Counted from the first letter of the stretch, positions 13,200 through 55,493 are shown. The stretch is 55,493 nt of DNA from an uncultured Rickettsiales bacterium (GCA_964492355.1 CAZBKF010000002.1:1-55493), one strand, 5' to 3'. Notes: generated from the sequence alone by a model not told the origin. Numbers and translations: made by a program.

Positions 13200-13353
13200 T
13201 GGACGGCGCCCCTCCTGGCGGGATCGACCGAAGACGCGTGATAGGATCGCCTAGTCGCGGCCGAGTCTGCTTGTCTCCTCTGAGTCTACGGTAGAGCGAG
13301 GGTCCCCGCGAGGGGCGCCGGCACGGGTTCAGACCCTCGGCGTAGGAGGGTCC

Positions 13354-14202
13354 ATGTCCGAGTCCTCTCGGTCGGACGCCCAGGGGCGCTCGGCCAGCTA
13401 CCGCATCGAGGATCTCGACGCCGAAGCAGAGCTTCGTCGACTCGAGGCCCAGGTCCGCTTGGTGGTGCCCACCGAGCATCGTCTCTTGAAGGAGATCGGC
13501 GTTCGGCCCGAGTCGACGTTCGTCGACGTCGGCTGCGGCCCCGGCTTCTTCGCTGAGCGCGCGGCCCGAGAGCTGCTCGACAGCGGCGCCCGGGGCGGCC
13601 GGATGATCGGCGTGGATGTGGACGAGAAGCTGATCTGGCTCGCACGCAAGCGAGCTGAGGATCTGCGCCTGCCTCTGGAGTACGTGGTCGGGGCCGGCGC
13701 GGAGATCCCGCTGGACGACGGCGTGGCGGACGTGACCTACGCGCGCTTCCTGTTTCAGCACCTCGAGCATCCGATGGACGTGCTGACGCAGATGGTCCGA
13801 ATCACCCGTCCCGGCGGCCTCGTGGCGATCGTGGACACGGACGACGGCAGCCTGGTCATGCACCCCGAACCCGTCGGGTTCCGGCGCCTGGTGGACGCCA
13901 GCGGGCGCGCCCAGAACGCCCGGGGCGGAGACCGGCGAGTGGGCCGCAAGCTCAAGCGGTATCTGGCTGCGGCGGGCCTCGAAGACCCAGGCACCAAGGT
14001 GCACGCGTTCACGAGTGAAGACGTGGGCGTCGATCCCTTCATCGAGATCACGGTTGGCTTCAAGGCCGGGGTCCTGCGCCCGCCGTTCATCACCGCCGCG
14101 GAGATCCAGGAGACTGTCGACGACCTGGACCGTGTGCGGAACACCCCAGGGTTCTTTGGCCACGCGCTCGGCTACCTCGCGTGGGGGCGGAAGCCCACGT
14201 GA
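13354..14202 (+). CDS. Class I SAM-dependent methyltransferase
   Basis: Motif I VDVGCGPGFF, then IGVDVD and a LVIVDTD-like motif (LVAIVDTD). GGAGGG RBS 6 nt upstream of the ATG. Confidence 0.8.
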   Translation: MSESSRSDAQGRSASYRIEDLDAEAELRRLEAQVRLVVPTEHRLLKEIGVRPESTFVDVGCGPGFFAERAARELLDSGARGGRMIGVDVDEKLIWLARKRAEDLRLPLEYVVGAGAEIPLDDGVADVTYARFLFQHLEHPMDVLTQMVRITRPGGLVAIVDTDDGSLVMHPEPVGFRRLVDASGRAQNARGGDRRVGRKLKRYLAAAGLEDPGTKVHAFTSEDVGVDPFIEITVGFKAGVLRPPFITAAEIQETVDDLDRVRNTPGFFGHALGYLAWGRKPT

Positions 14203-16343: not shown

Positions 16344-17413
16344 CCCGCCTTCGCGTTGGCGCCGGGCTGGCTCAGGCCGAGGGCTCGGGCCCGCTGCCAG
16401 TCGCGGCTGACCGCGTCCCTCAGGAGCAGGGCCTCATCGCCGATGACATCGATGCTCGAGATGTCGAGGGCGTCGCAGTCGAGCCACTGGAGCAGGATCG
16501 TGTCCCGGCCATCCAGGTCGGGCACATAGCCACCGAAGAAGAGCCCCGCCTCTTCGAGCAGGGGCAGGTGAGCTGCGACCTCGGGCACGTCCAGGGGGAG
16601 CAGCACGCTGATGTGCTCCATGTGGCCCCCAGCCATCCACATCACCTTGTCCATCACCGCCGACACGAAGTCCTCGTGCGCCGCGCGCACGTGCAGCACT
16701 CCCCGTCGCCGGGAGGGCTCGAACCAGGTGCGGATCACGCTCTCGCCCGGGGGCAGGGTCGCGGACTCGAGGCCCACCGACACCAGGTCGCGCCTCTGGT
16801 TGCTGTCCGAGAGGAGGTCGTGGAGGAACGGCGACCACTTCTCAGGAATGAAGGAGCGGCGGCTGTGCTCGGTGGTGGCCACGTGCATCAACAGCGTGGT
16901 CATGGGCTGGGGCTTGCGCTCGCTGTCGTGGATGACCCAGCCGGGCACGCCGCCCAGGAACATCGCGCCGGCCCGCCCCGCCATGCGTCGGGAGCTCCTC
17001 TGGGACATGAGGTGTCGGGTCAGGCATTTGGTGAAGATCGAGCGAAGGGCTGGGTTCACGGCCCGCTCGTTGGCGACGCACGCCATCGCCATGGCCCCCT
17101 GGATGGCCTTGCCCCGACGGTCCGGGTGCACGATCGACAGCCCCATCTCCACGCAGGTGGTCGGCTGGAGCTGCTCCTCGGTGGTGGCCATCTCGAACCA
17201 GGGGCGGATCGAGCCGAGGTGGCCGATGACCAGGCCCGTGTCGGAGTCGACGGCGAGCATGGACCGGATGAGCCCGCGCGCGTTCAGCTCGAGGAGCCGC
17301 TCGGGCTCGTACATGAAGCTGCGGTGATAGGTCAGGCCGTAGCCGGTGTAGACCAACTCCTGCAGACGCTTGGCGTCGTCGCGGTTGCGCAGAGGTCGTG
17401 TGTCGATTCCCAC
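16340..17413 (-). CDS. GNAT-like acetyltransferase family protein (probable tandem GNAT fold)
   Basis: 357 aa with a GTG start. The sequence around GLSIVHPDRRGKAIQGAMAMA resembles an acetyl-CoA-binding Q/RxxGxG/A motif. The functional call is weak. Confidence 0.5.
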   Translation of the reverse strand: MGIDTRPLRNRDDAKRLQELVYTGYGLTYHRSFMYEPERLLELNARGLIRSMLAVDSDTGLVIGHLGSIRPWFEMATTEEQLQPTTCVEMGLSIVHPDRRGKAIQGAMAMACVANERAVNPALRSIFTKCLTRHLMSQRSSRRMAGRAGAMFLGGVPGWVIHDSERKPQPMTTLLMHVATTEHSRRSFIPEKWSPFLHDLLSDSNQRRDLVSVGLESATLPPGESVIRTWFEPSRRRGVLHVRAAHEDFVSAVMDKVMWMAGGHMEHISVLLPLDVPEVAAHLPLLEEAGLFFGGYVPDLDGRDTILLQWLDCDALDISSIDVIGDEALLLRDAVSRDWQRARALGLSQPGANAKAG

Positions 17414-17464
17414 CGTCCCTACGTCATCGGAAGAGGTGGAAGGGACTTGAGCTTGCCGCGGGCT

Positions 17465-19858
17465 TTACCGCTTGATGGTGAGCTTCTGGCCGGGGCGCAG
17501 GGTGCTGCCCGCGAGATCGTTCCAGCGCTGCAGCTGGGCCACCGTCACGCCGTGCTTCTGGGCGATGCTCCACAGCGACTCCCCGCTCTGCACCTTGTGG
17601 GTCCTGGGGGCGGCCTTGGCGCTGGCCTTGCTGTGGATGGTCAGCTTCTGACCCACGCGGATGTTGGAGCCCTTGAGGCCGTTCCACCGCTGCACGTCGG
17701 AGACCCGAACGCCGTACTTCTCCGCGATGGTGCCGAGCACCTCGCCGCTGGACACCACGTGGGTGACCTTCCTGGTCGTGGGGGCGGGGGCCGCGCGCTT
17801 CGTCTCGTACACGGCGAGCTTCTGGCCCACCTTGATGTTCGTGCCGGACAGGCCGTTCAGGCTCTGCAGCTCGCGCACCGACATCCCGTGGTTCTGGGCG
17901 ATGGTCCCGAGGACGTCACCGCTCCGCACCGCGTAGGTGGTCTTGGTGCGGTTGGAGCTGCTGGCCGTGGTGGACGTGGCGCCGCCGGGCAGCTTCAGTC
18001 GCTGTCCGACCTTCAGCACGTCGCTGGAGAGGCCGTTGGCCTTGCGCAGCGCGGTCCAGCTGGTGCCGAACTTCGCGGCGATCTCCGAGACCGTGTCCCC
18101 CCGCTGGACTGTGTACCAGGACGGCTTGGCGGTGCTGGACGTCCGGGCAGTCTTCGTGGACTTGGAGGCAGCAGCGGCCGGGTTGCCCACCGTCTGCACC
18201 TTGAGGCGCTGCCCGATGGAGATGACGTCGCTGCGCAGCGCGTTCTGCTCCTTCAGGGTCGCCACCGTCGTGCCGTAGCCCTGGGCGATCTTCCCGAGCG
18301 TCTCGCCACGGGCGACCACGTGGATCATCTCCCGGGAGGTCAGGTTCTCGGCTCGTACGGGCACGGTCAGGACCTGGCCGATGCGCAGGCGGCGGGGGTC
18401 GCGCACCGAGTTGAGCTTCGCGATGGCCGCCATGGGCACGCCGTACCGCTGGCTGATCGCGCCCAGGGTCTGGCCCCGGGTCACCTTGTGGCGAACGAAC
18501 GTGATCCGCTCCGCCTTCGGCAGCTTCTCGAACTTCTTGGCGAAGGTCGCGCCCTCGCCCCGAGGGATGTTGAGCTCGTAGTTCTCGACGCCCGGAGGGG
18601 TGAAGCCCCGCTTCAGGTGCGGGTTCATCGCCTGGATCTCTTCGAGATCCCGCTTGGTGATCTTGGCGACGGCGGCCAGATCGGTGGCCTCGGGCACCTG
18701 CACCACGTCGTGGTCCCACAGGGACAGCTGATCCTCGGGCTTCTTCTCCTTCAGCAGGCCGTACCGCTCGGGGTACTTGCTGAGGATGGCGGCGGCCATC
18801 ATCTTCGGCACGTAGTGCTTGGTCTCGGGCTTCAGGTAGCTGCGGTGGGACGCGGACAGCTCCCAGAAGTCATCCGTGCCGTACATCCTGACGGCCTTGC
18901 CGATCTTGCCCTCGCCGGCGTTGTAGGCGGCGGTGGCCAGCTCCCACTGGCCGAACAGGCGGTACAGGTAGGACAGGTACTTGATGGCCGCGACGGTCGC
19001 CTTGACCGGGTCCCGGCGCTCATCGACCCACCAGTCCAGGGTGAGCCCGTAGTACTTGCCCGTTCGGGGCATGAACTGCCAGACGCCCACCGCTGCCGCC
19101 CGGGAGGTGGCGTAGGGGTTGAAGCCCGACTCGATCATCGACTGGGCGACCAGGTCCTGAGGCAGCCCGGCTTCCTTCAGGGCGGTGCGCAGGAGCGGGT
19201 CGTATCGCTCGGAGCGGGCCAGCCACTTCACGAAGTGCCCCCGACCGCGGGTCAGGAAGTAGACCATCCAGTTCTGGGTGCGCTCGTTGAGCACGATGGG
19301 GATGTCGAAGTCCGCGGGATCGACCCGGTCCAGGTGCAGGGCGGGGCGATCGTTCAGGACCTTGAGGGGGTCCTCGTAGTACCTGGTGGACGGATGGAAG
19401 TGGTGGTCCGAGCTGCCGAACCAGTGCTCGGCGAGCTTGCGCTCCTCGTTGAGCTCCGCGGTGGCCCGGGCGATCTGCTCGTCCTGGTGGGCTTCCAGGC
19501 CCGCCAGGATCTCCCGGAGCAGCAGGTCCAGCTCCTCCTCGCTGAGGGGGACCGGGTCCGCCAGGAGGGGTGCCTCCTGGTCGTGGAAGAAGCAGGTCGC
19601 GGCGTCATCGCAGTCCAGCTGGAGCCGGTCCAGGATGTCGCCCCGTTCGTCGTTCGTACGGTTCTTGCGGTTCTTGCGCTGCTTCTTGGGGCGCTTCTTC
19701 CCACGGGTCGCGAGCGCTTGGCCCCCGATCGCACGATCTCCGGAGCCCACTTCGCCTTCCTCGGGCGTCGAGCCGGCCACGGCAGACCCTGCCGGGAGCG
19801 CCAAGGCGGTGGCGAGTACGAGGGTCCGGAGGGCAGTGGTCCAGCGTTGCGAAGACAT
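17465..19858 (-). CDS. mltD: Membrane-bound lytic murein transglycosylase (MltD-like) with six C-terminal LysM domains
   Basis: The real start is the ATG at 19858 (MSSQRWTTALRTLVLATALALPAGSAVA, a signal peptide). SLT motif MIESGFNPYATSRAAAVGVWQFMPRTG. Six LysM repeats are present (e.g. VTRGQTLGAISQRYGV...IGQVLTVP). The upstream 238 codons of the 1035-aa track ORF overlap the divergent kinase gene and are rejected. Confidence 0.85.
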   Translation of the reverse strand: MSSQRWTTALRTLVLATALALPAGSAVAGSTPEEGEVGSGDRAIGGQALATRGKKRPKKQRKNRKNRTNDERGDILDRLQLDCDDAATCFFHDQEAPLLADPVPLSEEELDLLLREILAGLEAHQDEQIARATAELNEERKLAEHWFGSSDHHFHPSTRYYEDPLKVLNDRPALHLDRVDPADFDIPIVLNERTQNWMVYFLTRGRGHFVKWLARSERYDPLLRTALKEAGLPQDLVAQSMIESGFNPYATSRAAAVGVWQFMPRTGKYYGLTLDWWVDERRDPVKATVAAIKYLSYLYRLFGQWELATAAYNAGEGKIGKAVRMYGTDDFWELSASHRSYLKPETKHYVPKMMAAAILSKYPERYGLLKEKKPEDQLSLWDHDVVQVPEATDLAAVAKITKRDLEEIQAMNPHLKRGFTPPGVENYELNIPRGEGATFAKKFEKLPKAERITFVRHKVTRGQTLGAISQRYGVPMAAIAKLNSVRDPRRLRIGQVLTVPVRAENLTSREMIHVVARGETLGKIAQGYGTTVATLKEQNALRSDVISIGQRLKVQTVGNPAAAASKSTKTARTSSTAKPSWYTVQRGDTVSEIAAKFGTSWTALRKANGLSSDVLKVGQRLKLPGGATSTTASSSNRTKTTYAVRSGDVLGTIAQNHGMSVRELQSLNGLSGTNIKVGQKLAVYETKRAAPAPTTRKVTHVVSSGEVLGTIAEKYGVRVSDVQRWNGLKGSNIRVGQKLTIHSKASAKAAPRTHKVQSGESLWSIAQKHGVTVAQLQRWNDLAGSTLRPGQKLTIKR

Positions 19859-19969
19859 GTGCGCCAATATTGTCACACTTTCCCCACGCCGACTGTCACG
19901 AAAACGCCGCGTTCCCGCTGTGTTACTGATCCTGGCTCCGCGTGAGACGCCCCACGCGGCCTCGGATCC

Positions 19970-39481: not shown

Positions 39482-41583
39482 GCCAGCAGCGTACGGATCC
39501 GCTTGGTGAGCTGGGCGATCGTGAACGGCTTCTGGATCCAGCCGAGCCGGTCCGAGTCGTGCCCGATGTCGTCCAGGATCCCCTCGTCGTAGCCGGTCAT
39601 GAACAGGACGTGGGTGTCGGGAGCGAGCCGCGTGATCTCGGCGCAGACCTCGGCGCCGTTCATGTGGGGCAGCACCACGTCCACCAGCACGAGGTCGTAT
39701 CGGGCGGGATCCTCGGCGAAGCGGCTCACCCCCTGCTCGCCGTCCGCCGCCTGCCAGACCTCGTGGCCCAGGCGCATCAACGCGTTGACCACCGAGTTCC
39801 GCACGAACGCGTTGTCCTCCACCACCAGGATCTTGAGCGCCTCTTCGGGCCCCACCGGCGTCGCCGCCGCCGAGGCTGGCCCTGCGAGCTTGCCGGGATC
39901 GCACAACGGCAGATACACCGAGAACGTCGTGCCCTCGGCCGCCTCGGTGGTGAACGTGATGCTCCCTCCGTGGCGGGTGACGATGCTGTAGACGATCGAC
40001 AGCCCCAGCCCCGTGCCCTTCCCCAGCTTCTTGGTCGTGGCGAAGGGATCGAACAGCCGGTCCGCGATCTCCGCCGGGATGCCCGTGCCTTCGTCCGAGA
40101 TGGTGATCACCCCATAGGAGCCGGGAGCCAGCAGCTCCTTGCCGACGATGGTGGGCTCCGACAGCTCCTCCCGGCCGGTGGTGACGCGGATCCGGCCTCC
40201 GTCGGGCATCGCGTCCCGGGCGTTGCTCACCAGGTTCATCAGCACCTGGTCGATCTGACCTCGATCGACCTCGGCCGGGAGCACCTCCGGTGGTCCGAGG
40301 ACCATCTCGATGGGGACATCCGCCCGCAGGATCCGACCGAGGAAGCCCCGCAGGTCCTGGACGACGACGTTGAGATCCTGGGGTGCGACCACCGTGACCT
40401 GCTTGCGACCGAAGGACAGGAGCCGCGCCGTGAGCTCCGCCGCCATCCCCCTCAGCGAGCGCATCTCGTCGCAGTGGCCTCGGAGCTCGTCCGGCGCGCC
40501 GTCGATCATCGCGATGAGGTCGGTGACGCCCGCGATGCCCGTGAGGATGTTGTTGAAGTCGTGGGCGACGCCGCCGGCGAACTGTCCGATGGACTCCATC
40601 CGCCGCGCCTGGAGCAGGGTCTCTTCCAGGGCCCGCTGCTCGGTGATGTCGAGCGCCACGCTGACCAGGTAGACGACGGGCCCATCGGACTGCTCGGTCA
40701 GGGCGAAGCGGCCGGTGAGGTACCTCCGGTCTTCCCCGCCGGCCCTCAGGGTGCGCTCCCGGCGGGGCACCGCCCGCCCTGCCCTCAGCTCCTCGTCCTC
40801 GGCCAGCAGCGCGTCCCGCTCCACGCGGCTGACCAGGTCCGCGAGCTTGCGGCCTTCGACCGGACGCCCGCCCCCCAAGTCCTCCTGGAACCTCGAGCTG
40901 ACCCGGACGATGACCCCGTCCCGGTCCTGGATGCACAGCGGCAGCGGGGTGTGCGCGAGGATCCCCGCAAACTCGGTGGCCAGCGACTGCACGGGCCGCG
41001 AGACCGCCCGGCTGACCCGCACGACCACCACCATGCCCGCCACGGTCGCCAGCAGTCCGAACACGATCAGGGCGATGACGCCGGTTCGGAAGCGGTTGGC
41101 TGCTCGCTGGTGGGAGATGCCAACGCGGATCACGCCGATCACCCGATCCTCGAAGCCTCCCCGAAAGACCGTGACGACCTCTCGAACCGGCTGTCCGCCG
41201 ACCACGAGATCCCGGAACGCGGGCGACCCAGCCGTCGCGACAGGCGCCGGACCGAAGACCTCGGGCAGCTCTCCGGCCGCGGCGAAGACCGAGCCGTCCT
41301 TCTCCTCGATGCGCAGGTAGACGAGATCGGGCTGCTCTTCGATGTACTCCTCGATGAGGAGCTGGGCGTGCCACTTGCCCGAGAAGCTGACCCGGTGGAT
41401 CGACTTGCTCACCACCTGGGCGAGGGTGGCCGCGAGCTGGTTCTCATCCCGTTCGAGCTGTGCGTCCACGTAGAGCCAGCCCGCCCCCATGGCCGCCAGG
41501 ACCACGAGCAGCAGGCTGGCGCCAAATCGGAGCACCAGTCGTCGCTGGAGCGACCTGACGTACTGCAGCTCGGTCGTGGGCAC
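39478..41583 (-). CDS. Hybrid sensor histidine kinase / response regulator
   Basis: Two TM segments flank a periplasmic domain, followed by a PAS-like region. H-box GGVAHDFNNILTGI; HATPase motifs (NLVSNARDAM, DEGTGI, GTGLGL). C-terminal REC domain (ILVVEDN...DLVLVDVVLP). GTG start. Confidence 0.9.
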   Translation of the reverse strand: MPTTELQYVRSLQRRLVLRFGASLLLVVLAAMGAGWLYVDAQLERDENQLAATLAQVVSKSIHRVSFSGKWHAQLLIEEYIEEQPDLVYLRIEEKDGSVFAAAGELPEVFGPAPVATAGSPAFRDLVVGGQPVREVVTVFRGGFEDRVIGVIRVGISHQRAANRFRTGVIALIVFGLLATVAGMVVVVRVSRAVSRPVQSLATEFAGILAHTPLPLCIQDRDGVIVRVSSRFQEDLGGGRPVEGRKLADLVSRVERDALLAEDEELRAGRAVPRRERTLRAGGEDRRYLTGRFALTEQSDGPVVYLVSVALDITEQRALEETLLQARRMESIGQFAGGVAHDFNNILTGIAGVTDLIAMIDGAPDELRGHCDEMRSLRGMAAELTARLLSFGRKQVTVVAPQDLNVVVQDLRGFLGRILRADVPIEMVLGPPEVLPAEVDRGQIDQVLMNLVSNARDAMPDGGRIRVTTGREELSEPTIVGKELLAPGSYGVITISDEGTGIPAEIADRLFDPFATTKKLGKGTGLGLSIVYSIVTRHGGSITFTTEAAEGTTFSVYLPLCDPGKLAGPASAAATPVGPEEALKILVVEDNAFVRNSVVNALMRLGHEVWQAADGEQGVSRFAEDPARYDLVLVDVVLPHMNGAEVCAEITRLAPDTHVLFMTGYDEGILDDIGHDSDRLGWIQKPFTIAQLTKRIRTLLA

Positions 41584-41586
41584 GCC

Positions 41587-42651
41587 TCAGTCGCCGTGCC
41601 GCAGCACCCACTGCCAGGTGGGCTGGGTGCTCGGCCAGGGCTTCACGAAGGGCTCCGGCGGAGGCTGGTTCCAGCCGCGGAACTGCTGATGGGTCTCCTT
41701 GGTGATCGGGAAGACGGGCAGCAGCACCAGCGGCGGGACCTTGTCCCCCTGGAGCACTCGCCAGCCGAGCTTCATGCTCTCTGCGCCCAGCGCGCCGCAG
41801 AACTGCGCGGAGTCGATTCGCGTGATGCGCCCCGCGACGATGTTGGCCACCGAGGCGCTGTCGCCGTCGATGGTCGCGGCGATGATCTCGGTGCGGCCCG
41901 CCGCCGCCAGCGCGTCGACCACCGCGAGGCCCCCGCCGTCGTTCACGGTGAACACCGCGTCGATGGAGCCCTTGTCCGGGAAGGCCGCGAGCATCTTCTT
42001 GCCTGCCGCGGCGCCCCCCACCGGCTCGACCGCTTCGTAGCTCGCGAGCACCTTGAAGGGCTGCCCCGCGTCGCGCAGCGCGTCCATCAGCCCGTTGACC
42101 CGCTCCACCGTGGAGGACACGTGGGGGTACTCCACGAGCACGAGCCGGATCTCGTGCTCGGGGTGGAACATCGAGGCCAGGTACTCACCGTCGAGGTACC
42201 CCGCCTGGTGGTTGTCCGAGGTGAGGAAGGACGTGAGCTTGCCCTTGCCGGAGATGTACTGGTCGTAGGCGACGACGGGGATCCCTGCCTCGTTGGCCTT
42301 CACCAGGGGCGCCGCGAGGGCAGCGTTGTCCGTGGGCTGCACGATCAGCAGATCTGGTCGGAGATCGACCAGCTCGTTCATCTGCACGATCTGTCGTGCG
42401 ATGCCCTCGGGACCGTCGCCGGCGACCCGGGGGATCAGCTCCAGGCCTCGGGTCCCGCTGGCGGCGGCGGCGGCGTTCAGGGCGGTCGCTTCCCGCTCCA
42501 GGCCCTCCCGCATGGCCACCTGCCCGGGGATCTGCATGGACCAGTACAGGACGCCGACCCGGTATGGCGCAACGAGCGCCTCCCCAGCCCCCGACGTCGA
42601 GGGCAGGCAGAGGGTGACGGCGAGGAAGAGGAGGAGGAGCGGTGCCTTCAT
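41587..42651 (-). CDS. Periplasmic sugar-binding-protein-like (Peripla_BP/RbsB-type) solute-binding protein
   Basis: The ATG at 42651 gives the signal peptide MKAPLLLLFLAVTLCLPSTSGAG. The type I PBP pattern is present (VGVLYWS..., IVQPTDNAA, IPVVAYDQ, SDNHQAGY). It ends 3 nt before the hybrid kinase start. Confidence 0.75.
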   Translation of the reverse strand: MKAPLLLLFLAVTLCLPSTSGAGEALVAPYRVGVLYWSMQIPGQVAMREGLEREATALNAAAAASGTRGLELIPRVAGDGPEGIARQIVQMNELVDLRPDLLIVQPTDNAALAAPLVKANEAGIPVVAYDQYISGKGKLTSFLTSDNHQAGYLDGEYLASMFHPEHEIRLVLVEYPHVSSTVERVNGLMDALRDAGQPFKVLASYEAVEPVGGAAAGKKMLAAFPDKGSIDAVFTVNDGGGLAVVDALAAAGRTEIIAATIDGDSASVANIVAGRITRIDSAQFCGALGAESMKLGWRVLQGDKVPPLVLLPVFPITKETHQQFRGWNQPPPEPFVKPWPSTQPTWQWVLRHGD

Positions 42652-42697
42652 GGCTGCGCGGCAGGCTACCAAGGGCGGGGCCGAGTACACCCCGGGC

Positions 42698-43711
42698 TCA
42701 CCCCCCGATCTGGATCATGTTCCCCTCGAAGGGGTTGGTGCCGTCCTCGCCCGTGATGTGGGCGATGGGCTTGCGGAGGATCCCGGCGCGGATCGTCAGC
42801 TCCAGGTCGTCGTCGGACCCGCCGTTGCGCATCACGTCCCGCACCGAGACCATCTGGGGCTCGTAGGCGAGGCAGTTCTTCAGCCGGCCGTCGGACGTAA
42901 TCCGCACCCGGTTGCACGCCTCGCAGAACTGCCGGGAGAGCGCCCCGATGGCGCCGACGGTGACCTGGGTGCCGGCCACCGACCAGTAGTTGGCGGGGCC
43001 CGAGCCCTGGGGCCCTTGCACCGGCAGCAGCTCGAAGCGCTTCTCCAGTCGCTCCCGGGTCCGGGACCAGGGCACGAGGCTGAATCGGCTCTCTCCGAAC
43101 GGCATGTACTCGATGAACCGCACCGTCACCGGCAGGTGGGCGAATCGCTCGACGAAGGCGGTGACCTCGAGCTCGTTGAGGCCCTCGCAGACCACCACGT
43201 TCAGCTTCAGCGGGAGCCAGTCCAGGGCCACCACGGCCTCGATGCCCGCGAGCACGTCGTCCAGCCGATCCACCCGGGCCAGGGAGATGAAGCGCTCCCG
43301 GTCCAGGGTGTCGATGCTGATGTTCAGGCGGGTGAGGCCCGCTTCCTTGAGGGCGGGACCGATCTTCGCGAGGTTCCACCCGTTGGTGGTCATCGCCAGA
43401 TCCCGGAGCAGGGGCAGCGCTCCGAGGCGGCTCACCAGCTCGAGGATGTCCCGGCGCACCGTGGGCTCGCCGCCGGTGAGTCGGATCCGGTCGACCCCCA
43501 TCTCGGAGAGCACCCGACCGAGCCGTTCGATCTCCTCGAACGTCATCAGCTCGCTGCGCGCGGTGAACTCCACGCCCTCTTCGGGCATGCAGTAGACGCA
43601 CCGGAAGTTGCACCGGTCCGTCACGGACAGCCGGACGTAGTGGATGCGACGCCCGAAGGGGTCGATGATCGCGCCCCGAGGCGGCCGGGGCGGTGGAGGC
43701 GGTTGTCCCAT
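42698..43711 (-). CDS. moaA: GTP 3',8-cyclase (molybdenum cofactor biosynthesis protein A, radical SAM)
   Basis: ATG at 43711 (TGATG overlap with the mrp stop). YVRLSVTDRCNFRCVYCMPEEG contains CxxxCxxC. The C-terminus ends ...MIQIGG. 337 aa. Confidence 0.9.
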   Translation of the reverse strand: MGQPPPPPRPPRGAIIDPFGRRIHYVRLSVTDRCNFRCVYCMPEEGVEFTARSELMTFEEIERLGRVLSEMGVDRIRLTGGEPTVRRDILELVSRLGALPLLRDLAMTTNGWNLAKIGPALKEAGLTRLNISIDTLDRERFISLARVDRLDDVLAGIEAVVALDWLPLKLNVVVCEGLNELEVTAFVERFAHLPVTVRFIEYMPFGESRFSLVPWSRTRERLEKRFELLPVQGPQGSGPANYWSVAGTQVTVGAIGALSRQFCEACNRVRITSDGRLKNCLAYEPQMVSVRDVMRNGGSDDDLELTIRAGILRKPIAHITGEDGTNPFEGNMIQIGG

Positions 43712-47042: not shown

Positions 47043-47890
47043 GGAGCCGCCCCGGCGAACGGGTCGATCTCGTCCACGACCCGGAGCGCGACATCGGGGA
47101 AGTCCGTGATCAGCGCGTTGACCCGCAGTCGGATCAGCTCACGCATGCGCGACTCCTCGTTGACCGTCCAGGTGTTGACGGCGAGGCCGCGCAGATGAGC
47201 CTTGCGCACGAGGTCCTCGGTGACGACTCTGTGGGCCGGGTGGAGCGCGTACACCGACAGAAGGGGCGCGAGCCAGGGCCGACGCAACAGGCGATCGCGT
47301 AACCCCGTGCCTTCCGTGGGGTACACCAGGGAGAGCGGAACGGAGCTGTTCAGCTTCACGCGGAGCAGTGAGCCGGGGTTGAACGAGCTGACGATGCACT
47401 CCGAGGACAACGCCATCCGATCGATGAACGCCGCCAGCGCGGTCGCCGTGCCGTCACCCCGGGCCGAGTCCTCCTTGATCTCGATGTTCAGTCGCACCCG
47501 GTCCCGGAAGACCTCCACCACCTCTTGCAGCAGCGGGATGGGCTCCCCCGCGAACTCCTCGCTGAAGTGGGAGCCCACGTCGATCTTCTTCAGCTCGCTC
47601 CAGGACATCGTGGTGACGTCCTTCTTGATGCCCGCGACCCGCTCCAGGGTCCGGTCGTGAAAGACGATCAGCTCCCCCGTCGCGCAGCGGCGCACGTCCA
47701 GCTCGAACCACGGCACACCGAGGTCGGCGGCGTTCCGGAAGGCCGCCATGGTGTTCTCGGGAGCGAGCCCGGCGCCGCCCCGGTGGGCCTGGATCTGCAC
47801 GTAGGGGGCGCGCTTGGGCGCTGCCTTGGGGCTCGGCGTAGAGGCCCGGCCAGGCTTGCGCGGCGTCTCGGCGGGGGTGTGGGCGCTCAC
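47039..47890 (-). CDS. Glycerophosphodiester phosphodiesterase (GDPD family)
   Basis: IQAHRGGAGLAPENTMAAF, ELDV, and IVFHDRTLER are present. GTG at 47890 is the only start that retains the HRGG motif. The start is uncertain and would overlap the divergent gene start by 12 nt. Confidence 0.75.
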   Translation of the reverse strand: MSAHTPAETPRKPGRASTPSPKAAPKRAPYVQIQAHRGGAGLAPENTMAAFRNAADLGVPWFELDVRRCATGELIVFHDRTLERVAGIKKDVTTMSWSELKKIDVGSHFSEEFAGEPIPLLQEVVEVFRDRVRLNIEIKEDSARGDGTATALAAFIDRMALSSECIVSSFNPGSLLRVKLNSSVPLSLVYPTEGTGLRDRLLRRPWLAPLLSVYALHPAHRVVTEDLVRKAHLRGLAVNTWTVNEESRMRELIRLRVNALITDFPDVALRVVDEIDPFAGAAP

Positions 47891-50743
47891 GGGCCGCAAC
47901 CTAGCGTCATCGCGTTCCTCCTGGCGCTCGTGTCGGGCTTGCTGGTGCTCCCCGCGCTCGCCGACGAGGTGGATCCCGGCGCGACCTGGTCCGTGCACAT
48001 CGACGCCACCGTGTCTCCCGACGAGCGGCGGATCTTCGGCACCACCACCCTCACTCTCTGGAACCCGACCTCGTCTCCCCTGACCGAGGTCCGGTTTTTC
48101 CGCTACCCGGACCACTACGACGACCGACCGGCCCTGGACGACATCCTCTGGGAGCGGGTCTATCCAGGGGTCTGGGAGCCCGGGGTCATCACCATCGGGC
48201 CCGTGGTGGTGCGCGACGCCGAAGGCACCGAGGCCACGGTCGAGGCGACCGCCGCCGACGTGGGAGAGGTGCCGATCAGCCGGGTCGCGCTGCCGTCCCC
48301 GCTGCTCCCCGGGGGCACCGTCGAGGTGGAGATCCCGTTCGAGACCCTGGTCCCCAAGAAGTACGGCACCTTCGGCGAGTTCCGGGGCGTCCTGACCGCC
48401 AGCGGGGGATGGCACCCCATCCCCGTGGGGCTCTCCTCCGAGGGTGACTGGCTCCACGACAGCCTGCCGCCGCCCTCGGACTGGGACGTGCGGCTGACGG
48501 CGCCCCGCCGCTCCGGCCTGGTGCTGGGGGACGGGGTCCTGCCTCCGGTCTCGGGCTCCACGATCGGGTCCGGCGGCGGGCACGGGTGGGTCGGGGCCCG
48601 CTCCCATCGCACGGTTCGCCCCGACGCCTTCGTGCCCGACGCGGGGCACGAGCTGGCGGTGATCTCAGAGGATGGCGAGGCCCGCACGGTGCGCTACCAG
48701 GCGGCCGGCGAGCGGTTCGTGGGCCTGACCACTCGGGCTGGCTTTCACCAGCGGAACATCCCCCTGGTCGACGGCACCTCCGTCACGTTCGTCGGCAGGC
48801 CGCTGGGGCGGGCCCAGGTGCGCTGGCTGCGACAGGCCGCCGAGTCCGCGCGCCAGACCCTCTCGGAGCTGGGCGTGCACTCCGAGCCGGCGGGCCTGCT
48901 GCTCGTCGAGGCCCCCCTGCGCCGCAAGCTCGTGGAGCTCGGCGACCACGTCATCTACGTCTCCGATCGGTTCCTCGAGGTCGAGTTCCCCTTCTGGCGC
49001 TACCACGACACCCACCTCGCCCGGGCCATCATGGCCGTGGACCTGGAGCCGTCGGTGCTCGACCGAGAGCCGGCGGAGCAGGGCGACCTGACCCTGGGCG
49101 GAGTCTCCTGGGCCCTCGTCGAGGACTACCTGCGCACCCGCTGGCGCAACCACACCAACCTCAGGAGGCTGCTCGAGCGGTTCTCGTTCTTCCCCCAGGT
49201 GGAGTCCCTCCTGGAGACGCCGGCCTTCCCGTTCGCCGACCAGATCTTCGACAACCCCTGGATCGTCGATCCCCTCCGGGCCGACATCCGGCGCTTCAAC
49301 CGCCCCCTCCGCTCGGGGCGCGCCCTCTTTCTCCGGTTGGGAGACCGGACGGGCCCCGGCACACTGCGACAGACCGCCCTGCGCTACCTCCGGGCGGGTC
49401 CCCAGGATGTCCCCCGCCCCGACTTCCTGACCGCCCTGCACACCGCATCGGGGCTGGAGGTCCACGACTTCGCAGAGGCCTGGCGGGGACGGGCGCCCCG
49501 GGTCGACTTCTCCCTGGAGCAGGTCGAGCGGCGCCGCACCGAAGACGGCTTCCAGCGCACCATCGTCACCGTCCGACGGCGGGAGCTGGAGGGGGCTGCC
49601 CCCGACGAGGTGGTGGAGATCCGCCTGCGCCCGGGCCCCGGACGCAAGGGTCACGTCTGGCTTCGGTGGGACGGCCGGGACGAGGTGGCCACCTGGGATG
49701 TGATCACGAAGCGCCGGATGTCCGTCGTCGAGATCGATCCCCGGGGACGCCTGCTCGAGATGGACGAGCACGGCCTCAGCCTGAAGCAGGACAACCGCCT
49801 GCCCGTGCCCCTGAGGCTGAGCGGGTACGGGTACGCGGGCCTGTCGATCACGGGACAGGGCTTCGAGGCCTACGGGCTGCTCAACGTGCGCCCCCGGCAC
49901 AACGCCCGCAACCAGGTGAACGCCCGGGCCTTCACCAACGAGCAGGTCATCGCGGGCGGAGGCCTGACCTACGCCCACTACTTCGGCCCCCCTCGCTGGG
50001 GCCTGTCGCTGCGCCACCGGCTGGTCTTCACCACCAACGTGGTGTGGCTGAATCGCCGCTTTCGGGAGACTGAGGCGCCCCTGCTGGCGGAGGTGTCCGC
50101 GGGCTACGTGTACGAGAGCCGGTCCAACAGCTTCATGCCGAGCAAGGGGGGGCGCTTCTCGGTCCTGGCGACCGTCGGCAAGGACTTCGCCCTGGATCCC
50201 CAGGTCGATCGCCAGCTCCGGGACACGGCCTTCGTCGGCGTGGACGTCCAGGCGATTCGCCTCCTCCGCCTGCACCCCTTCCACGTCCTCGCCCTGAAGG
50301 CCAAGGCTGGCTTCGTGCTGGGGAACGTCGAGCACAGCCACTACCCGGTCGGGGGAAACCGGGATCTGCGGGGCATCCCCGAGTCGGAGCTGCTCTCCCC
50401 CGGGCGTGTCGCCGGGACGGTGGAGTGGCGCCACTTCTTCTTCAAGGACGCGGACCTGCCCAACGTGCTGCACCGCGTCCGGGCCCTGCAGGGCGCGTTC
50501 TTCGTGGAGGGGGCGGCGGCGGCTCGCAGCCTGTCCACGGCTCCGACGGTCGAGGATCTGCACGTCTCCATCGGCTACGGCTTCCGCTGGTTCATGGACT
50601 GGTTCGGGGTCCTTCCGGCAGCCTGGGGCATGGACTTCGCGTGGTCCCCGGGAGCTCCGAAGGGGCTGCTTCCCATCGGTCTGCCCGGAGACTGGCCGGA
50701 GGTCCCGTTCCAGGTGTACTTCGTCGGATCCCAGAGCTTCTGA
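47879..50743 (+). CDS. Large outer-membrane protein with C-terminal Omp85/D15 (bacterial surface antigen)-like barrel
   Basis: The signal-like segment VIAFLLALVSGLLVLPALA follows GTG 47879, but the start is uncertain. The long N-terminal region is of unknown function. The C-terminal ~300 aa show a beta-strand pattern (GGNRDLRGIPESE..., VSIGYGFRW) and end VYFVGSQSF. The upstream part of the 1072-aa track ORF overlaps the GDPD gene. Confidence 0.6.
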   Translation: MGAHGPQPSVIAFLLALVSGLLVLPALADEVDPGATWSVHIDATVSPDERRIFGTTTLTLWNPTSSPLTEVRFFRYPDHYDDRPALDDILWERVYPGVWEPGVITIGPVVVRDAEGTEATVEATAADVGEVPISRVALPSPLLPGGTVEVEIPFETLVPKKYGTFGEFRGVLTASGGWHPIPVGLSSEGDWLHDSLPPPSDWDVRLTAPRRSGLVLGDGVLPPVSGSTIGSGGGHGWVGARSHRTVRPDAFVPDAGHELAVISEDGEARTVRYQAAGERFVGLTTRAGFHQRNIPLVDGTSVTFVGRPLGRAQVRWLRQAAESARQTLSELGVHSEPAGLLLVEAPLRRKLVELGDHVIYVSDRFLEVEFPFWRYHDTHLARAIMAVDLEPSVLDREPAEQGDLTLGGVSWALVEDYLRTRWRNHTNLRRLLERFSFFPQVESLLETPAFPFADQIFDNPWIVDPLRADIRRFNRPLRSGRALFLRLGDRTGPGTLRQTALRYLRAGPQDVPRPDFLTALHTASGLEVHDFAEAWRGRAPRVDFSLEQVERRRTEDGFQRTIVTVRRRELEGAAPDEVVEIRLRPGPGRKGHVWLRWDGRDEVATWDVITKRRMSVVEIDPRGRLLEMDEHGLSLKQDNRLPVPLRLSGYGYAGLSITGQGFEAYGLLNVRPRHNARNQVNARAFTNEQVIAGGGLTYAHYFGPPRWGLSLRHRLVFTTNVVWLNRRFRETEAPLLAEVSAGYVYESRSNSFMPSKGGRFSVLATVGKDFALDPQVDRQLRDTAFVGVDVQAIRLLRLHPFHVLALKAKAGFVLGNVEHSHYPVGGNRDLRGIPESELLSPGRVAGTVEWRHFFFKDADLPNVLHRVRALQGAFFVEGAAAARSLSTAPTVEDLHVSIGYGFRWFMDWFGVLPAAWGMDFAWSPGAPKGLLPIGLPGDWPEVPFQVYFVGSQSF

Positions 50744-51345
50744 TGGCGCGCACGGTGCTCGCAGTGCTGGTCTGCTCGCTGCTCCTCGGGGCGGGCTGTG
50801 CGACGACGCGCGGGGCAAAGAAGAAGGAGGTCGACCCCCTGGACCAGGTGCTGGCCACCGCGGCGCAGCTGGTCGGCGAGACCTCGGTCATGGTGCAGGG
50901 ACGGTCCTTCCGGTCCGACTGCAGCGGCTTCGTGTGCGCCGCCTACCACGCGATCAACCTGGACCTGATCGATCCGGAGGCCCGGGGCCGATCGGGCACC
51001 GAGTTGCTCTATCGCACCTTTCAGAAGGAGGGGCGGATCCAGAGCGGGGCGGCGCTGAAGCGGGGTGACCTGCTGTTCTTCCACAACACGTGGGATCGAA
51101 ACGGCAACAAGCTGAGGGATGACAGGTTCACCCACGTCGGCCTGGTCGAGGCGGTCGAGCGCGATGGCCGGGCGACGTTCCTGCACTTTGCGTCGGGCCG
51201 GGTGAAGCGGGGCGTCCTCAACCTGAGACATCCCCACGTCTCCCGTGACCCGGACTCCGGCGTGGAGTGGAACTCGCACCTGCGGCGGGGAGCGGGGAAG
51301 ACCCTGACCGGGCAGCTGTTCTTCCGCTCGGCCCGACCGCTGTAA
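50743..51345 (+). CDS. NlpC/P60-family cell-wall hydrolase lipoprotein
   Basis: ATG at 50743 (TGATG overlap with the upstream stop). MARTVLAVLVCSLLLGAGC contains a lipobox. The catalytic Cys lies in RSDCSGFVCAAY and the His in FTHVGLV. Confidence 0.8.
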   Translation: MARTVLAVLVCSLLLGAGCATTRGAKKKEVDPLDQVLATAAQLVGETSVMVQGRSFRSDCSGFVCAAYHAINLDLIDPEARGRSGTELLYRTFQKEGRIQSGAALKRGDLLFFHNTWDRNGNKLRDDRFTHVGLVEAVERDGRATFLHFASGRVKRGVLNLRHPHVSRDPDSGVEWNSHLRRGAGKTLTGQLFFRSARPL

Positions 51346-51522
51346 AGGCTGGGCGCAGTGGGGCCTTCGTTGGATGCTCGTACTCCAAGGGCACCGATCC
51401 GCCTGGGGTGATTCAAGCCTCGAAGTGGATCCCCTGGGGTGGAGTGGGGTATGAGTGCTTCGATTCCCGCCTCGACCGGCGCCTTTCGGCTGGGGGAGTC
51501 GACGCTGTTAAATGAGGCGGGT

Positions 51523-51527
51523 GGAGG
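51523..51527 (+). promoter_or_regulatory. Shine-Dalgarno (GGAGG) 6 nt upstream of the ATG at 51534
   Basis: ggtGGAGGatactgATG. Confidence 0.6.
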
Positions 51528-51533
51528 ATACTG

Positions 51534-54500
51534 ATGCCGTCCTGTCTGCGTTCTACCCTCGCCACCATGGCGGGCCTCTTCATTCTCGCGCCTGCCGCTG
51601 CCCTCGCTCAGGGTGGCCCCGATGCCGGCGGACACATCTGGAACACCACGACGTACGACTTCGTGGTGCTCGACCCCGCGAGCAGCGGTTCCGGCACGGC
51701 GCTGGCGCTGACGACCTCGGACCAGGAGTTCGACGTCACGCTGCCCTGGCAGTTCGCGTTCTACGGGAACAGCTACTCGACCATCACCGTCGGTGAGAAC
51801 GGCGCCATCGCCATGGGCGGCGGGGCCAACCTCTTCAACGGAAACGGCTCGCTGCCCGACACGTCGACCGACTCGGCAGACATCGCCGTGTTCTGGGACA
51901 GCCTGGACGCGTGGGACAGCGGTGCGAGCGCTGCCGTCGGCGGCATCTTCACCTACGACGACACGGCGAACTCGCGCTTCATCGTCTCCTGGGAGAACGT
52001 CGGCTACAGCAGCGACAACACCCCGGGCGGTTCCTTCCAGGTGCACCTGATGGCTGACGGCACCATGTCGTTCCACTACGCGGACACCGACTTCGGTGGC
52101 TCCGGCGACTTCGGCGCGAGCGCCACCGTCGGCATCCAGGACTTCACCAACGGCACCGCCGATCAGGGCAACGCCCTGGAGATCTCGTACAACACGGCGA
52201 GCATCACCGACGGCGTCACCGCCTACGGCATCAGCTTCTGCGCCGACGGCGACGTGGACGGCTTCTACGACATCGCCTGCGGCGGCGACGACTGCGACGA
52301 CGCGGCGGCGGCGATCAACCCGGCCGCGGCCGAGACCTGCAACGACGGCATCGACCAGGACTGCAGCGGCGCCGACTCCCTGGACGACGTCGCCGCGGAC
52401 GGCGGCATCAACACCGACTGCGGCGGCGACGCCAGACACGAACTGGACGCGACGATCAACCCGCCCACCGCCGAGGTCTGCGACGACAGCATCGACAACG
52501 ACTGCGACGCGACCACGCCCGACATCTTCGACGCGGACGCGGACACCTACGACTGCGATGACGACTGTGACGACTCCGACGCCGCCGTGAACGCCGGCGC
52601 CACCGAGGTCTGCTCCGACGGCATCGACAACGACTGCGACGGCATCCCCCTGCTGTCCGACACGGACCTGGACGGCGACATCGCCATCGCGTGCGGCGGC
52701 ACCGACTGCGACGACTTCGACGCGTCCCTGAACACCCTGACGGACGCCGACGGCGACGGCTTCGACTCCTGCTCTGACTGCGACGACACGAGCGCCGTCT
52801 CGCTGCCCGGCGGCACCGAGGTCTGTGACGGCCTCGACAACGACTGCGACGGCATCGGCGCGGGCGTCGCCGAGTTCGGCGGCACGAACTCGACGAGCAT
52901 GTTCGGCCCCGGCTCGAACCGCGGCCGCGGTGGCATCTGGGCCATCACCTCGACCACCATCCTGAACAGCGTCGGCGCGCGCTTGGACGTGCCCGTCGGC
53001 TCCGACGTGGTCTTCGCGGTCTACGCGGGTCCCGCCACGGGCGTCGCGACCGGCCCCTCCGACTTCAGCCTGATGGCCACCGCCACCTACACCTCGGCGG
53101 CCGATGGCCTGATGGACCGCATGGTCGACATCGGCGTCACCCTGGACGCGGGCTTCGACTACGGCTTCATGTACTACTGGACCGACAGCGTCGGCTACGG
53201 CTACACGAGTGGGACCAGCTTCCCGATCGTGGCCCCGTTCGGCGGCCAGTACACCTCGGTCTTCGACTCGAGCAACAGCTCGCCCCCGGCCGTGGGCTCG
53301 GGCAGCACGAGCAGCACCCACTACTCGCTGATCCTCGGCGTGGGCGACGAGCTGGCCGACGCGGACGCGGATGGCGTCACGGCCTGTCTCGGTGACTGCA
53401 TCGACAGCGACGCCACGGTGAACCCGAGCGCCGTCGAGGTGTGCGACACCCTGGACAACAACTGCGACGGCAACACCGACGATGTCGACCTCGACATCGA
53501 CGGCGAGGTCGACGAGGCGTGCGGCGGCACCGACTGCAACGACGCGGACGCCGCGATCAACACCGCGGCCACCGAGGTCTGCGACGGCGTCGACGGCGAC
53601 TGCGACGGCCTCGACGACACGATGGACACGGACCTGGGCCCGCCGATCGTGGCGAACGCCCCCGAGACCCAGAGCAGCACCCCGGGCGCCGGGATCAGCG
53701 ACAGCAACCCGACCACGACGGACACCGTGACCTTCGCCACGGTGGGCGCGGTCACGGACATCAACGTGTCGGTGGACATCACCCACACCTGGGATGGGGA
53801 CATCGACATCGTCCTGACGGCGCCCTCCGGCAACTCGGTGACGCTGGCCGACCGGATCGGTGGCAGCGCGAACGACTACACGGGCACGACCTTCGACGAT
53901 GAGGCGACCGGCCCGATCACCGCGAGCTCCCCGCCGTACACGGGCACCTTCCAGCCCCAGAACGCCCTCAGCGCTCTCGACGGCGAGTCGGTCGCGGGTA
54001 CCTGGTCGCTGTCCATCACGGACTACGCGGGTGGCGACAACGGCACCCTGAACTCCTGGTCCGTGACCATCGAGTCCGGCTCGGGCGGCGCGGACATCGA
54101 CTTCGACGGCTTCATCGACAACTCGCTCTGCGCGACCATCGACGCCGACTGCGACGACACCGACGCCACGATCTACCCCGGCGCCCTGGAGATCTGCGGC
54201 GATTCGATCGACCAGGACTGTGACGGTGTGGACACCACGGGCGACGTGGACACCGACACGTACGCCTCGGTCGAGTGCGGTGGCACCGACTGCGACGACA
54301 ACAACATCCTCGTCTTCGACGGCTCGGACAACGACGGCGACTCGGCCCTGGGCTGCCAGGACGACTGCGACGACACCAACGCCGCGGTCGGCCCGTTCGC
54401 GACCGAGGTCTGCAGCGACGGCATCGACAACGACTGCGACGGCATCGCCTTCGAAGGCGCCGACGTCGACCTGGACGGCGAGACCGACTGCACCGACTGC

Positions 54501-55493
54501 GACGACAACGACCCGCTGATCAACTCCGCGGCGACCGAGGTCTGCGGTGACGGCATCGACAACAACTGCAGCGGCACGGCCGATGACCTCGACGTCGACC
54601 TCGATGGTGGCATCAGCGGCGACTGCAACGGCGACGACTGCGACGACGCGGACGCGACGGCCTTCGTGGGCAACACCGAGGTGTGCGACGGCGTCGACAA
54701 CGACTGCGATGGCCTCGAGGACGGTGCGGACTTCGACCTGGACACGACGGTGGTCGCGGCGGCTCCCGAGACGGTCGCCAGCACCCCCGGCACCACCATC
54801 GACAGCTCCACCCCGGCGATCACGGAGGCCTTGACCTTCGCGGGCACGGGCTACGTGACCGACGTGACGGTCACGATCGACATCACCCACGAGTGGGACG
54901 GTGATCTGAACATCTCCCTCATCTCGCCGACCGGCACGTCCGTCGACCTGAGCTCCGGCAACGGCGGCAGCTCGGACGACTACACCGCGACGGTGTTCAG
55001 CGACTCGGCGGCCACCTCGATCACCTCGGGCAGCGCTCCCTTCACCGGCACGTTCCAGCCCGAAGAACCCCTCAGTGGCTTCTACGGCGAGCTCGTGACG
55101 GGCGACTGGACGCTCGACGTCACGGACACCTTCCCGTCCGGCGACGACGGCGTGCTGAACTCCGTCTCGGTCACGATCGAGTCGAGCGTCGGGCTGTCCA
55201 CGGCTGACGTGGACCAGGATGGCTGGATGGGCTCCGCAATCTGCGCGGTGGGTCCGAGCGACTGCGACGACGCGGATGCGACCATCAACCCCGACGCCTT
55301 CGACATCTGCGGTGACACCATCGACCAGGACTGCGACGGCGCGGACGCGGCCGGTGACGTCGACGCGGATACGTTCATCGCCGAGGCTTGCGGCGGCGAC
55401 GACTGCGACGACGCGGACGCGACGGTGAACCCCGACGCGATCGAGGTCTGCAACGACGCGATCGACAACGACTGCGACGCCACGACCGACGAC
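51534..55493 (+). CDS. Giant secreted Cys-rich-repeat (MopE-type putative metal-binding motif) protein with two proprotein-convertase P-domains; 3'-truncated by the window edge
   Basis: Hand translation of all 1320 codons from ATG 51534 to the window end found no stop, and GC3 is close to 100%. The signal peptide is MPSCLRSTLATMAGLFILAPAAALAQ. About 14 modules fit CGG.DCDD.DA.INP.A.E.C.D.IDNDCDG. The P-domain signatures are DITHTWDGDIDIVLTAPSGNSV...GTWSLSITD...LNSWSVTIE and DITHEWDGDLNISLISPTGTSV...GDWTLDVTD...LNSVSVTIE. It is not in the ORF track because it has no stop in the window. Confidence 0.85.
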   Translation, partial: MPSCLRSTLATMAGLFILAPAAALAQGGPDAGGHIWNTTTYDFVVLDPASSGSGTALALTTSDQEFDVTLPWQFAFYGNSYSTITVGENGAIAMGGGANLFNGNGSLPDTSTDSADIAVFWDSLDAWDSGASAAVGGIFTYDDTANSRFIVSWENVGYSSDNTPGGSFQVHLMADGTMSFHYADTDFGGSGDFGASATVGIQDFTNGTADQGNALEISYNTASITDGVTAYGISFCADGDVDGFYDIACGGDDCDDAAAAINPAAAETCNDGIDQDCSGADSLDDVAADGGINTDCGGDARHELDATINPPTAEVCDDSIDNDCDATTPDIFDADADTYDCDDDCDDSDAAVNAGATEVCSDGIDNDCDGIPLLSDTDLDGDIAIACGGTDCDDFDASLNTLTDADGDGFDSCSDCDDTSAVSLPGGTEVCDGLDNDCDGIGAGVAEFGGTNSTSMFGPGSNRGRGGIWAITSTTILNSVGARLDVPVGSDVVFAVYAGPATGVATGPSDFSLMATATYTSAADGLMDRMVDIGVTLDAGFDYGFMYYWTDSVGYGYTSGTSFPIVAPFGGQYTSVFDSSNSSPPAVGSGSTSSTHYSLILGVGDELADADADGVTACLGDCIDSDATVNPSAVEVCDTLDNNCDGNTDDVDLDIDGEVDEACGGTDCNDADAAINTAATEVCDGVDGDCDGLDDTMDTDLGPPIVANAPETQSSTPGAGISDSNPTTTDTVTFATVGAVTDINVSVDITHTWDGDIDIVLTAPSGNSVTLADRIGGSANDYTGTTFDDEATGPITASSPPYTGTFQPQNALSALDGESVAGTWSLSITDYAGGDNGTLNSWSVTIESGSGGADIDFDGFIDNSLCATIDADCDDTDATIYPGALEICGDSIDQDCDGVDTTGDVDTDTYASVECGGTDCDDNNILVFDGSDNDGDSALGCQDDCDDTNAAVGPFATEVCSDGIDNDCDGIAFEGADVDLDGETDCTDCDDNDPLINSAATEVCGDGIDNNCSGTADDLDVDLDGGISGDCNGDDCDDADATAFVGNTEVCDGVDNDCDGLEDGADFDLDTTVVAAAPETVASTPGTTIDSSTPAITEALTFAGTGYVTDVTVTIDITHEWDGDLNISLISPTGTSVDLSSGNGGSSDDYTATVFSDSAATSITSGSAPFTGTFQPEEPLSGFYGELVTGDWTLDVTDTFPSGDDGVLNSVSVTIESSVGLSTADVDQDGWMGSAICAVGPSDCDDADATINPDAFDICGDTIDQDCDGADAAGDVDADTFIAEACGGDDCDDADATVNPDAIEVCNDAIDNDCDATTDD
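52227..55493 (+). repeat. Dispersed coding repeats (~90-100 nt Cys-rich modules) within the giant gene
   Basis: gactgcgacgac occurs at least 10 times (near 52290, 52696, 52772, 54151, 54286, 54361, 54493, 54636, 55258 and 55398). atcgacaacgactgcgacgg-type strings also recur. Confidence 0.85.

Follow-up and report, generated by a model that had tools for sequence, protein, structure and literature searches.

The prototype of the MYXO-CTERM proteins is TraA of Myxococcus xanthus, in which a lectin-like domain at the N-terminus is followed by Cys-rich repeats, a proposed rigid stalk, and by MYXO-CTERM at the C-terminus (PMC3325183); in terms of named families, its domains are PA14, the Cys-rich repeats of TIGR04201 and MYXO-CTERM (PMC3325183, PMC11980579). 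Proteins of the MYXO-CTERM pathway leave the cytoplasm through Sec and stay in the inner membrane by means of their C-terminal helix, and lipidation at the invariant Cys is thought to occur (PMC11980579). Cleavage of the TraA tag was tested by co-expression with M. xanthus MrtX, a myxosortase of the CPBP protease type (PMC11980579). We analysed a 55,493-nucleotide stretch of DNA assigned to an uncultured Rickettsiales bacterium (GCA_964492355.1, CAZBKF010000002.1:1-55493; this whole stretch is called the window, and positions are counted from its first letter). A plus-strand gene that starts at position 51534 and runs off the window end encodes a product that has in common with TraA a signal peptide, N-terminal beta-rich, putatively binding domains, Cys-rich repeats and a probable C-terminal sorting tag of Cys, transmembrane segment and Arg. 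With MopE of Methylococcus capsulatus (2VOV), it shares the short C.DG.DNDCDG-type motif that defines the Pfam family PF11617, and with the kexin/furin-type subtilases it shares their C-terminal P-domain (PF01483), here in two copies (112.7 bits). The same DNA is covered on the minus strand by a long open reading frame (ORF), which is like the shadow ORFs of high-GC bacterial genomes in its high G+C content at the first codon position (GC1; likewise GC2 and GC3), its Val/Ala/Gly/Arg-rich product and its lack of homologues.

The plus strand carries the real gene, a call we regard as virtually certain, and the window holds codons 1-1320 (64%) of a 2067-codon ORF (51534..55493, + strand). From the ATG at 51534, the plus frame ran without a stop through all 1320 codons up to base 55493, the end of the window; a preliminary description made from this DNA alone had reported the same by hand translation, and the program translation revealed no stop that had been missed. 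A GGAGG Shine-Dalgarno sequence (51523..51527, +), read directly, lies exactly 6 nt ahead of the ATG and is kept in two orthologous loci, L001 and L002. The G+C content at codon positions 1/2/3 was 0.60/0.51/0.95, which bears out the earlier remark that third positions are almost all G or C. The signal peptide and recognisable domains described before were also found: a Sec-type signal was evident by inspection, and Pfam searches yielded PF11617 in 12 stretches, PF01483 in two and a weak NIDO match. Among 5.8 billion proteins searched, 5294 matched the plus product, many at E = 0. Comparison with L001 aligned 1312 codons, 678 of which differ; 241 of these differences are synonymous when read in the plus frame and 96 when read in the minus frame, and the amino-acid identity is 66.7% in the plus frame versus 55.6% in the minus frame. 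The gene call of the Joint Genome Institute (JGI) on a near-identical contig, L007, is on the plus strand, public records already assign orthologues with 52-66% identity to the plus strand, and the NCBI name for one orthologue, 'proprotein convertase P-domain-containing protein', agrees with that strand.

No closed ORF in the window is longer than the minus-strand one at 51021..54890, which has 1289 aa counted from its first GTG and lies in a frame without stops between 55493 and 51024. The ORF list that accompanied the DNA leaves out frames running off the window end, and for this reason the plus gene, which the preliminary description had called untracked, is missing from it; with open ends allowed, the plus frame was also listed, and the minus frame was seen to extend without a stop as far as 55493. 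Codon for codon, the minus ORF is the exact reverse complement of the plus gene, in a register in which plus position 3 is minus position 1, and its GC1/2/3 of 0.90/0.53/0.62 therefore mirrors the plus profile. A frame-specific comparison of GC3 thus separates the strands (0.95 for plus; 0.62, with GC1 0.90, for minus). The minus product had the low-complexity V/G/D/A/R composition ascribed to it earlier (V273 A210 G182 R175 D102 of 1289 residues). Hidden Markov model searches of both translations assigned PF11617 and PF01483 to the plus product and 0 Pfam families to the minus product, and the search of 5.8 billion proteins gave the latter 2 marginal matches, both without a Pfam family (E 3.5e-7 and 1.3e-5; query coverage 8% and 1%).

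The length of the minus ORF has a simple origin. Since each minus codon is the reverse complement of a plus codon, a minus stop is possible only opposite TTA, CTA or TCA; the plus gene uses none of these among its 61 Leu and 111 Ser codons, so the minus frame stays open. From the position-specific base frequencies of the gene, 0.9 antisense stops were expected per 1320 codons (P(0) = 0.41); the codon usage of 21 further high-GC3 frames in the window raised this expectation to 2.8 (P(0) = 0.06). With a P(0) of 0.41, the long minus ORF needs no biological explanation. One could still propose that both strands code and that the minus ORF is a genuine antisense gene overlapping the giant gene, given that in the window, and also in L001 (2169 aa), L007 (2314 aa, which exceeds the gene itself) and L002 (0 stops in 1973 codons), the antisense frame has no stop along the entire gene, and that two weak database matches exist. 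However, composition predicts this openness, across orthologues too, and the gene's lack of three rare codons accounts for it; the high GC1 and lower GC3 are the mirror of a coding bias; the product is a V/A/G/R-rich sequence of low complexity with no Pfam family; amino-acid changes are more numerous in the minus frame than in the plus; and the minus ORF would reach with its 3' end 325 nt into a neighbouring NlpC/P60 gene (50743..51345, +), an overlap that the preliminary description had pointed out. Neither the JGI nor the NCBI gene callers make a minus-strand call. We consider coding on both strands extremely improbable. The minus ORF is a shadow ORF, an annotation artefact of a GC-rich genome and a textbook property of such genomes: its codons are reverse complements with a mirrored GC profile, it has neither homologues of note nor domains and is more poorly conserved, and its length is explained by composition. 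The preliminary description, which had called it an antisense artefact, was right on this point. Compared with other high-GC shadow ORFs, it is the same in kind and stands out for length alone (1289 aa in the window; 2314 aa on L007).

The full length of the gene was read from the near-identical contig. The top database match, P0003 (2056 aa), is identical to the window product at 1300 of 1309 residues (99%) and is encoded on the JGI metagenome contig Ga0115650_1003221, which is L007. On this contig the ORF from the upstream ATG spans 9968-16171 (2067 aa) and is followed by a stop; by this proxy, 64% of the gene lies within the window and 747 codons (2.24 kb) lie beyond it. The whole gene is thus 1.57 times the visible part, and orthologue lengths are 1966-2065 aa. 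The expectation that the gene would be far longer than the visible 3.96 kb did not hold. The stop looked for by extension was located on the 99%-identical L007 and not on the window's own assembly. The ATG at 51534, the GGAGG and the N-terminus MPSC(L/M)RS are kept in L001 and L002. The JGI start on L007 is at 10001 (window 51567), which is Met12, 11 codons past the conserved ATG and ribosome-binding site; starting there would cut away the charged n-region of the signal peptide, and L002 has no ATG at the Met12 position. The conserved ATG, GGAGG and N-terminus, together with the absence of a Met12 ATG in L002, make 51534 the better start.

The product is built of beta-rich modules separated by Cys-rich repeat blocks, all given here on the plus strand. 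Residues 1-25 (51534..51608) form a signal peptide, judged by sequence inspection to be of the Sec type, with cleavage after ALA (product N-terminus MPSCLRSTLATMAGLFILAPAAALA, followed by QGG); this N-terminus is conserved in L001 and L002. Residues 26-236 (51609..52241) form a conserved, weakly NIDO-like N-terminal domain, supported by PF06119, homologues and AlphaFold. PF06119 scored 18 bits in the window part (cutoff 25) and 33.4 bits in the full-length protein, the latter summed over weak stretches, none of which is significant alone; the identity of this domain among 19 homologues is 43-79%, and its AlphaFold model has an all-beta core with a predicted local distance difference test (pLDDT) score of 70.5. 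The first MopE-type block of Cys-rich and DxDxDG repeats follows at residues 237-439 (52242..52850), as mapped by PF11617 and by regular expressions for the repeats and D.D.DG motifs. The central domain at residues 440-608 (52851..53357) was confidently modelled by AlphaFold as a lectin-like or carbohydrate-binding-module (CBM)-like beta-sandwich (pLDDT 86.5, predicted template modelling score 0.84), and Foldseek matched it to a cyanophage capsid protein, PHR domains, CBM6 and the lectin-like domain of Cwp84 (E 2e-4 to 1e-2, TM-score 0.37-0.61). This domain is the most variable part of the family, with 15-69% identity among homologues versus 43-79% for the N-terminal domain, and this sequence variability hints at a specificity-determining module.

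Downstream of the central domain, a second MopE repeat block at residues 609-700 (53358..53633; PF11617 and regular-expression map) leads to the first P-domain at residues 741-845 (53754..54068), which is also the best stretch of PF01483. A third repeat block, mapped in the same way, occupies residues ~855-1060 (54096..54713). The second P-domain at residues ~1100-1217 (54831..55184) has approximate boundaries, which were drawn from internal similarity to the first P-domain and from the stretch at 1105-1209 of the orthologue P0002. A fourth repeat block begins at 55206 and is cut by the window end (55206..55493; translation and regular-expression map), and it continues in P0003 on L007. Altogether, PF11617 scored 303.7 bits (cutoff 27) over 12 stretches in the window part and 589.8 bits over 23 stretches in the full-length protein, and PF01483 scored above its cutoff of 21 bits in both P-domains together. 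Past the window, P0003 continues with additional repeats, which bring the total to 23, then a second NIDO-like region, another set of repeats and a tail ending in CADCNSSLSGDGAPSALMLFLGLAGLLGMRRRRVL. The mature window part contains 53 Cys and 16 D.D.DG motifs; with 269 acidic versus 8 basic residues, its calculated isoelectric point is 4.05. Family scans found neither Peptidase_S8 nor any other peptidase in the window part, and over the full 2067 aa they found no catalytic domain of any kind, peptidases included; the NCBIfam scan of the window part gave no family.

The C-terminus of P0003, which lies beyond the window, displays a tripartite plan, CADC...LMLFLGLAGLLGMRRRRVL, consisting of a Cys motif, a hydrophobic helix and RRRR. 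Two orthologues, P0002 and P0010, match the MYXO-CTERM model TIGR03901 (21.0 and 20.7 bits; cutoff 20). The product is most likely a cell-surface protein of ~2067 residues, acidic and Cys-rich, of a marine myxobacteria-like bacterium; the sequence occurs in runs of marine metagenomes, and the locus records are metagenome-assembled genomes (MAGs) labelled uncultured proteobacterium and Deltaproteobacteria bacterium. As an explanation of the locus as a whole, a plus-strand gene for a surface protein with a shadow ORF on the minus strand is highly probable. Several points weigh against it. The runs in which the sequence occurs are DNA runs only, with no RNA run among them. The 3' third of the gene was taken from L007 and not from the window's own assembly, which was not among the matches of the contig scan, where the best match had 66% identity. 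P0003's own C-terminus gave no TIGR03901 match at E<=0.01, and Foldseek of the N-terminal domain against the PDB gave no fold relative (best E 0.7). Surface anchoring, Ca2+ binding and an adhesive role are features that we infer, Ca2+ binding and adhesion from motifs and folds only.

With regard to function, we lean slightly towards an adhesin or receptor stalk and away from an enzyme. The product would be exported by Sec, lipidated at the C-terminal Cys, cut by a myxosortase and then moved to the cell surface; analogy with TraA suggests that the two proteins may take the same route. The highly acidic repeats, presumably stabilised by Ca2+ and disulfide bonds, would build a long, rigid stalk on which the beta-sandwich modules are presented for binding. 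Because no catalytic domain is present in the 2067 aa, the P-domains are read as free-standing beta-sandwich modules, whereas in the kexin/furin-type subtilases a Peptidase_S8 catalytic domain lies N-terminal to the P-domain.

Two more specific functions were weighed against the adhesin or receptor stalk. With TraA the product shares an overall plan of signal peptide, lectin-like beta-sandwich, Cys-rich stalk and probable MYXO-CTERM signal, and the central domain is far more variable (15-69%) than the N-terminal domain (43-79%); the product might thus be a TraA-like polymorphic receptor for self-recognition, with its specificity determined by the variable beta-sandwich at the centre. However, neither PA14 nor TIGR04201 was found in the Pfam and NCBIfam scans. 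The repeats here belong to PF11617 and not to TIGR04201, and two P-domains and two NIDO-like domains are present in a protein that lacks PA14. The protein is about three times the size of TraA, by TraA numbering (Cys686-687 lie in the C-terminal tag of TraA). No traB (OmpA-like) gene adjoins, the neighbours being genes for an Omp85-like protein and NlpC/P60, and the variability was measured between species-level orthologues and not within a population. We judge a TraA-like receptor to be quite unlikely. An even less probable function is that of a secreted copper-acquisition protein of the MopE/CorA kind, which we regard as very doubtful. The repeats do belong to the Pfam family named 'Cu-binding_MopE' (PF11617), and MopE 2VOV was the only PDB sequence match (E 0.001). 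Yet the match spans 48 residues only (query 402-449 versus chain 5-52) and leaves the rest of the MopE chain unmatched, and no homology was seen over the fold in which MopE carries its copper site. Only a short stretch of MopE is represented in the PF11617 model, which is unspecific (PMC6189053), and a similar motif forms the Cys-rich domain of teneurin (PMC3278476); the name 'Cu-binding_MopE' is no evidence for copper binding. The present full-length protein, in contrast to MopE, has at least 23 copies of the motif, and its C-terminus points to a surface anchor and not to release.

The gene enlarges an already large family of acidic and Cys-rich surface proteins of the MYXO-CTERM type, which come from marine deltaproteobacteria-like MAGs and are still uncharacterised. 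Its closest relatives are annotated as 'proprotein convertase P-domain-containing' or 'MYXO-CTERM domain-containing' proteins in deltaproteobacterial and Myxococcota MAGs; they share 52-66% identity over the full length and an identical domain order, and they have the same neighbours, namely Omp85-like and NlpC/P60 genes and a downstream MopE paralogue. Examples are P0010 (contig JAGSHC010000001) and P0004, whose length is that of the L001 ORF (CALAGR010000207) and whose identity is similar. The window gene differs from these MAG proteins in representing a different species-level lineage and in carrying a patch of 12 substitutions. The family is already named, though uncharacterised, and the gene is already on the correct strand in public records; no long-standing question is opened by it.

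Upstream, the NlpC/P60 gene into which the shadow ORF extends at its 3' end was identified by PF00877 (27.4 bits, cutoff 23) and by the JGI call on L007. The gene order is Omp85-like (~950-1150 aa), NlpC/P60, the ~2000-aa MopE/P-domain protein and a second MopE protein (1200-1450 aa); the Omp85-like neighbour is divergent and scored below threshold for PF01103. This four-gene order is kept in three lineages, represented by the window with L007, by L001 (66% identity) and by L002 (52% identity), at 47879-55493 of the window, 6313-20207 of L007, 6031-20483 of L001 and 5744-19640 of L002. It is conceivable, although we think it unlikely, that the block is a dedicated export and display module for giant surface proteins in an uncultured marine Myxococcota-like clade. 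In such a module, the Omp85-like protein and the wall hydrolase would help the giants to cross the envelope, and the hypervariable central beta-sandwich would serve as a polymorphic recognition domain.

A non-coding block, GGGGTATGAGTGCTTCGATTCCCGCC, was observed at window ~51443-51475, 60-90 nt upstream of the start, and is nearly invariant in L001 and L002, whose proteins are 52-66% identical. The block had no Rfam match and no sigma-70 consensus promoter. A sigma-54-like GG...GC reading, judged by eye, has its spacing off by one; the block may be an alternative-sigma promoter or an operator.

The main value of the locus lies in quality control of annotation. The window has a GC content of 70%, and nearly every frame with a GC3 of ~0.9 has a long partner with a GC1 of ~0.9. 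Two more closed ORFs, at 16568-19945 (+, 1125 aa, the second-longest) and 39559-42756 (+, 1065 aa), bear the shadow signature (GC1 ~0.91, GC3 0.63-0.70), each opposite a minus-strand frame with a GC3 of ~0.9. A rule that takes the longest ORF thus picks the wrong strand at the present gene and at least twice more in the window, and the real gene is hidden as well when an ORF track leaves out frames that continue past the window end; the frame-specific GC3 test settles all these strand cases. The artefact is routine for GC-rich genomes and not a new kind of biology.

Within the first repeat block, the window differs from L007 by a patch of 12 substitutions clustered in 85 nt (52380..52464, +), found by sequence comparison with the public contig. 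These are the only differences from L007 over the compared gene; they change nine residues and remove a conserved repeat cysteine (GGDARHELD in the window versus GGDDCNDLD in L007), and the orthologue L001 is L007-like at this site (GGDDCDDLD). In run X1, the single Logan contig across the patch (300 nt, depth 3.6) has all 12 L007 letters, and the window version was found in none of the contigs from four marine runs. Hypermutation of the diversity-generating retroelement type was ruled out, the changes not being adenine-specific. For gene conversion from another repeat no donor was found: within the window the variant sequence occurs once, and none of the loci compared contains it. Either a consensus error or an allele of a strain from another sample accounts for the patch. 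Separately, Logan contigs from three of the four marine runs revealed a second haplotype at window 52146-52234. Each contig carries 7-15 differences, which indicates co-existing strains at low depth (~4x).

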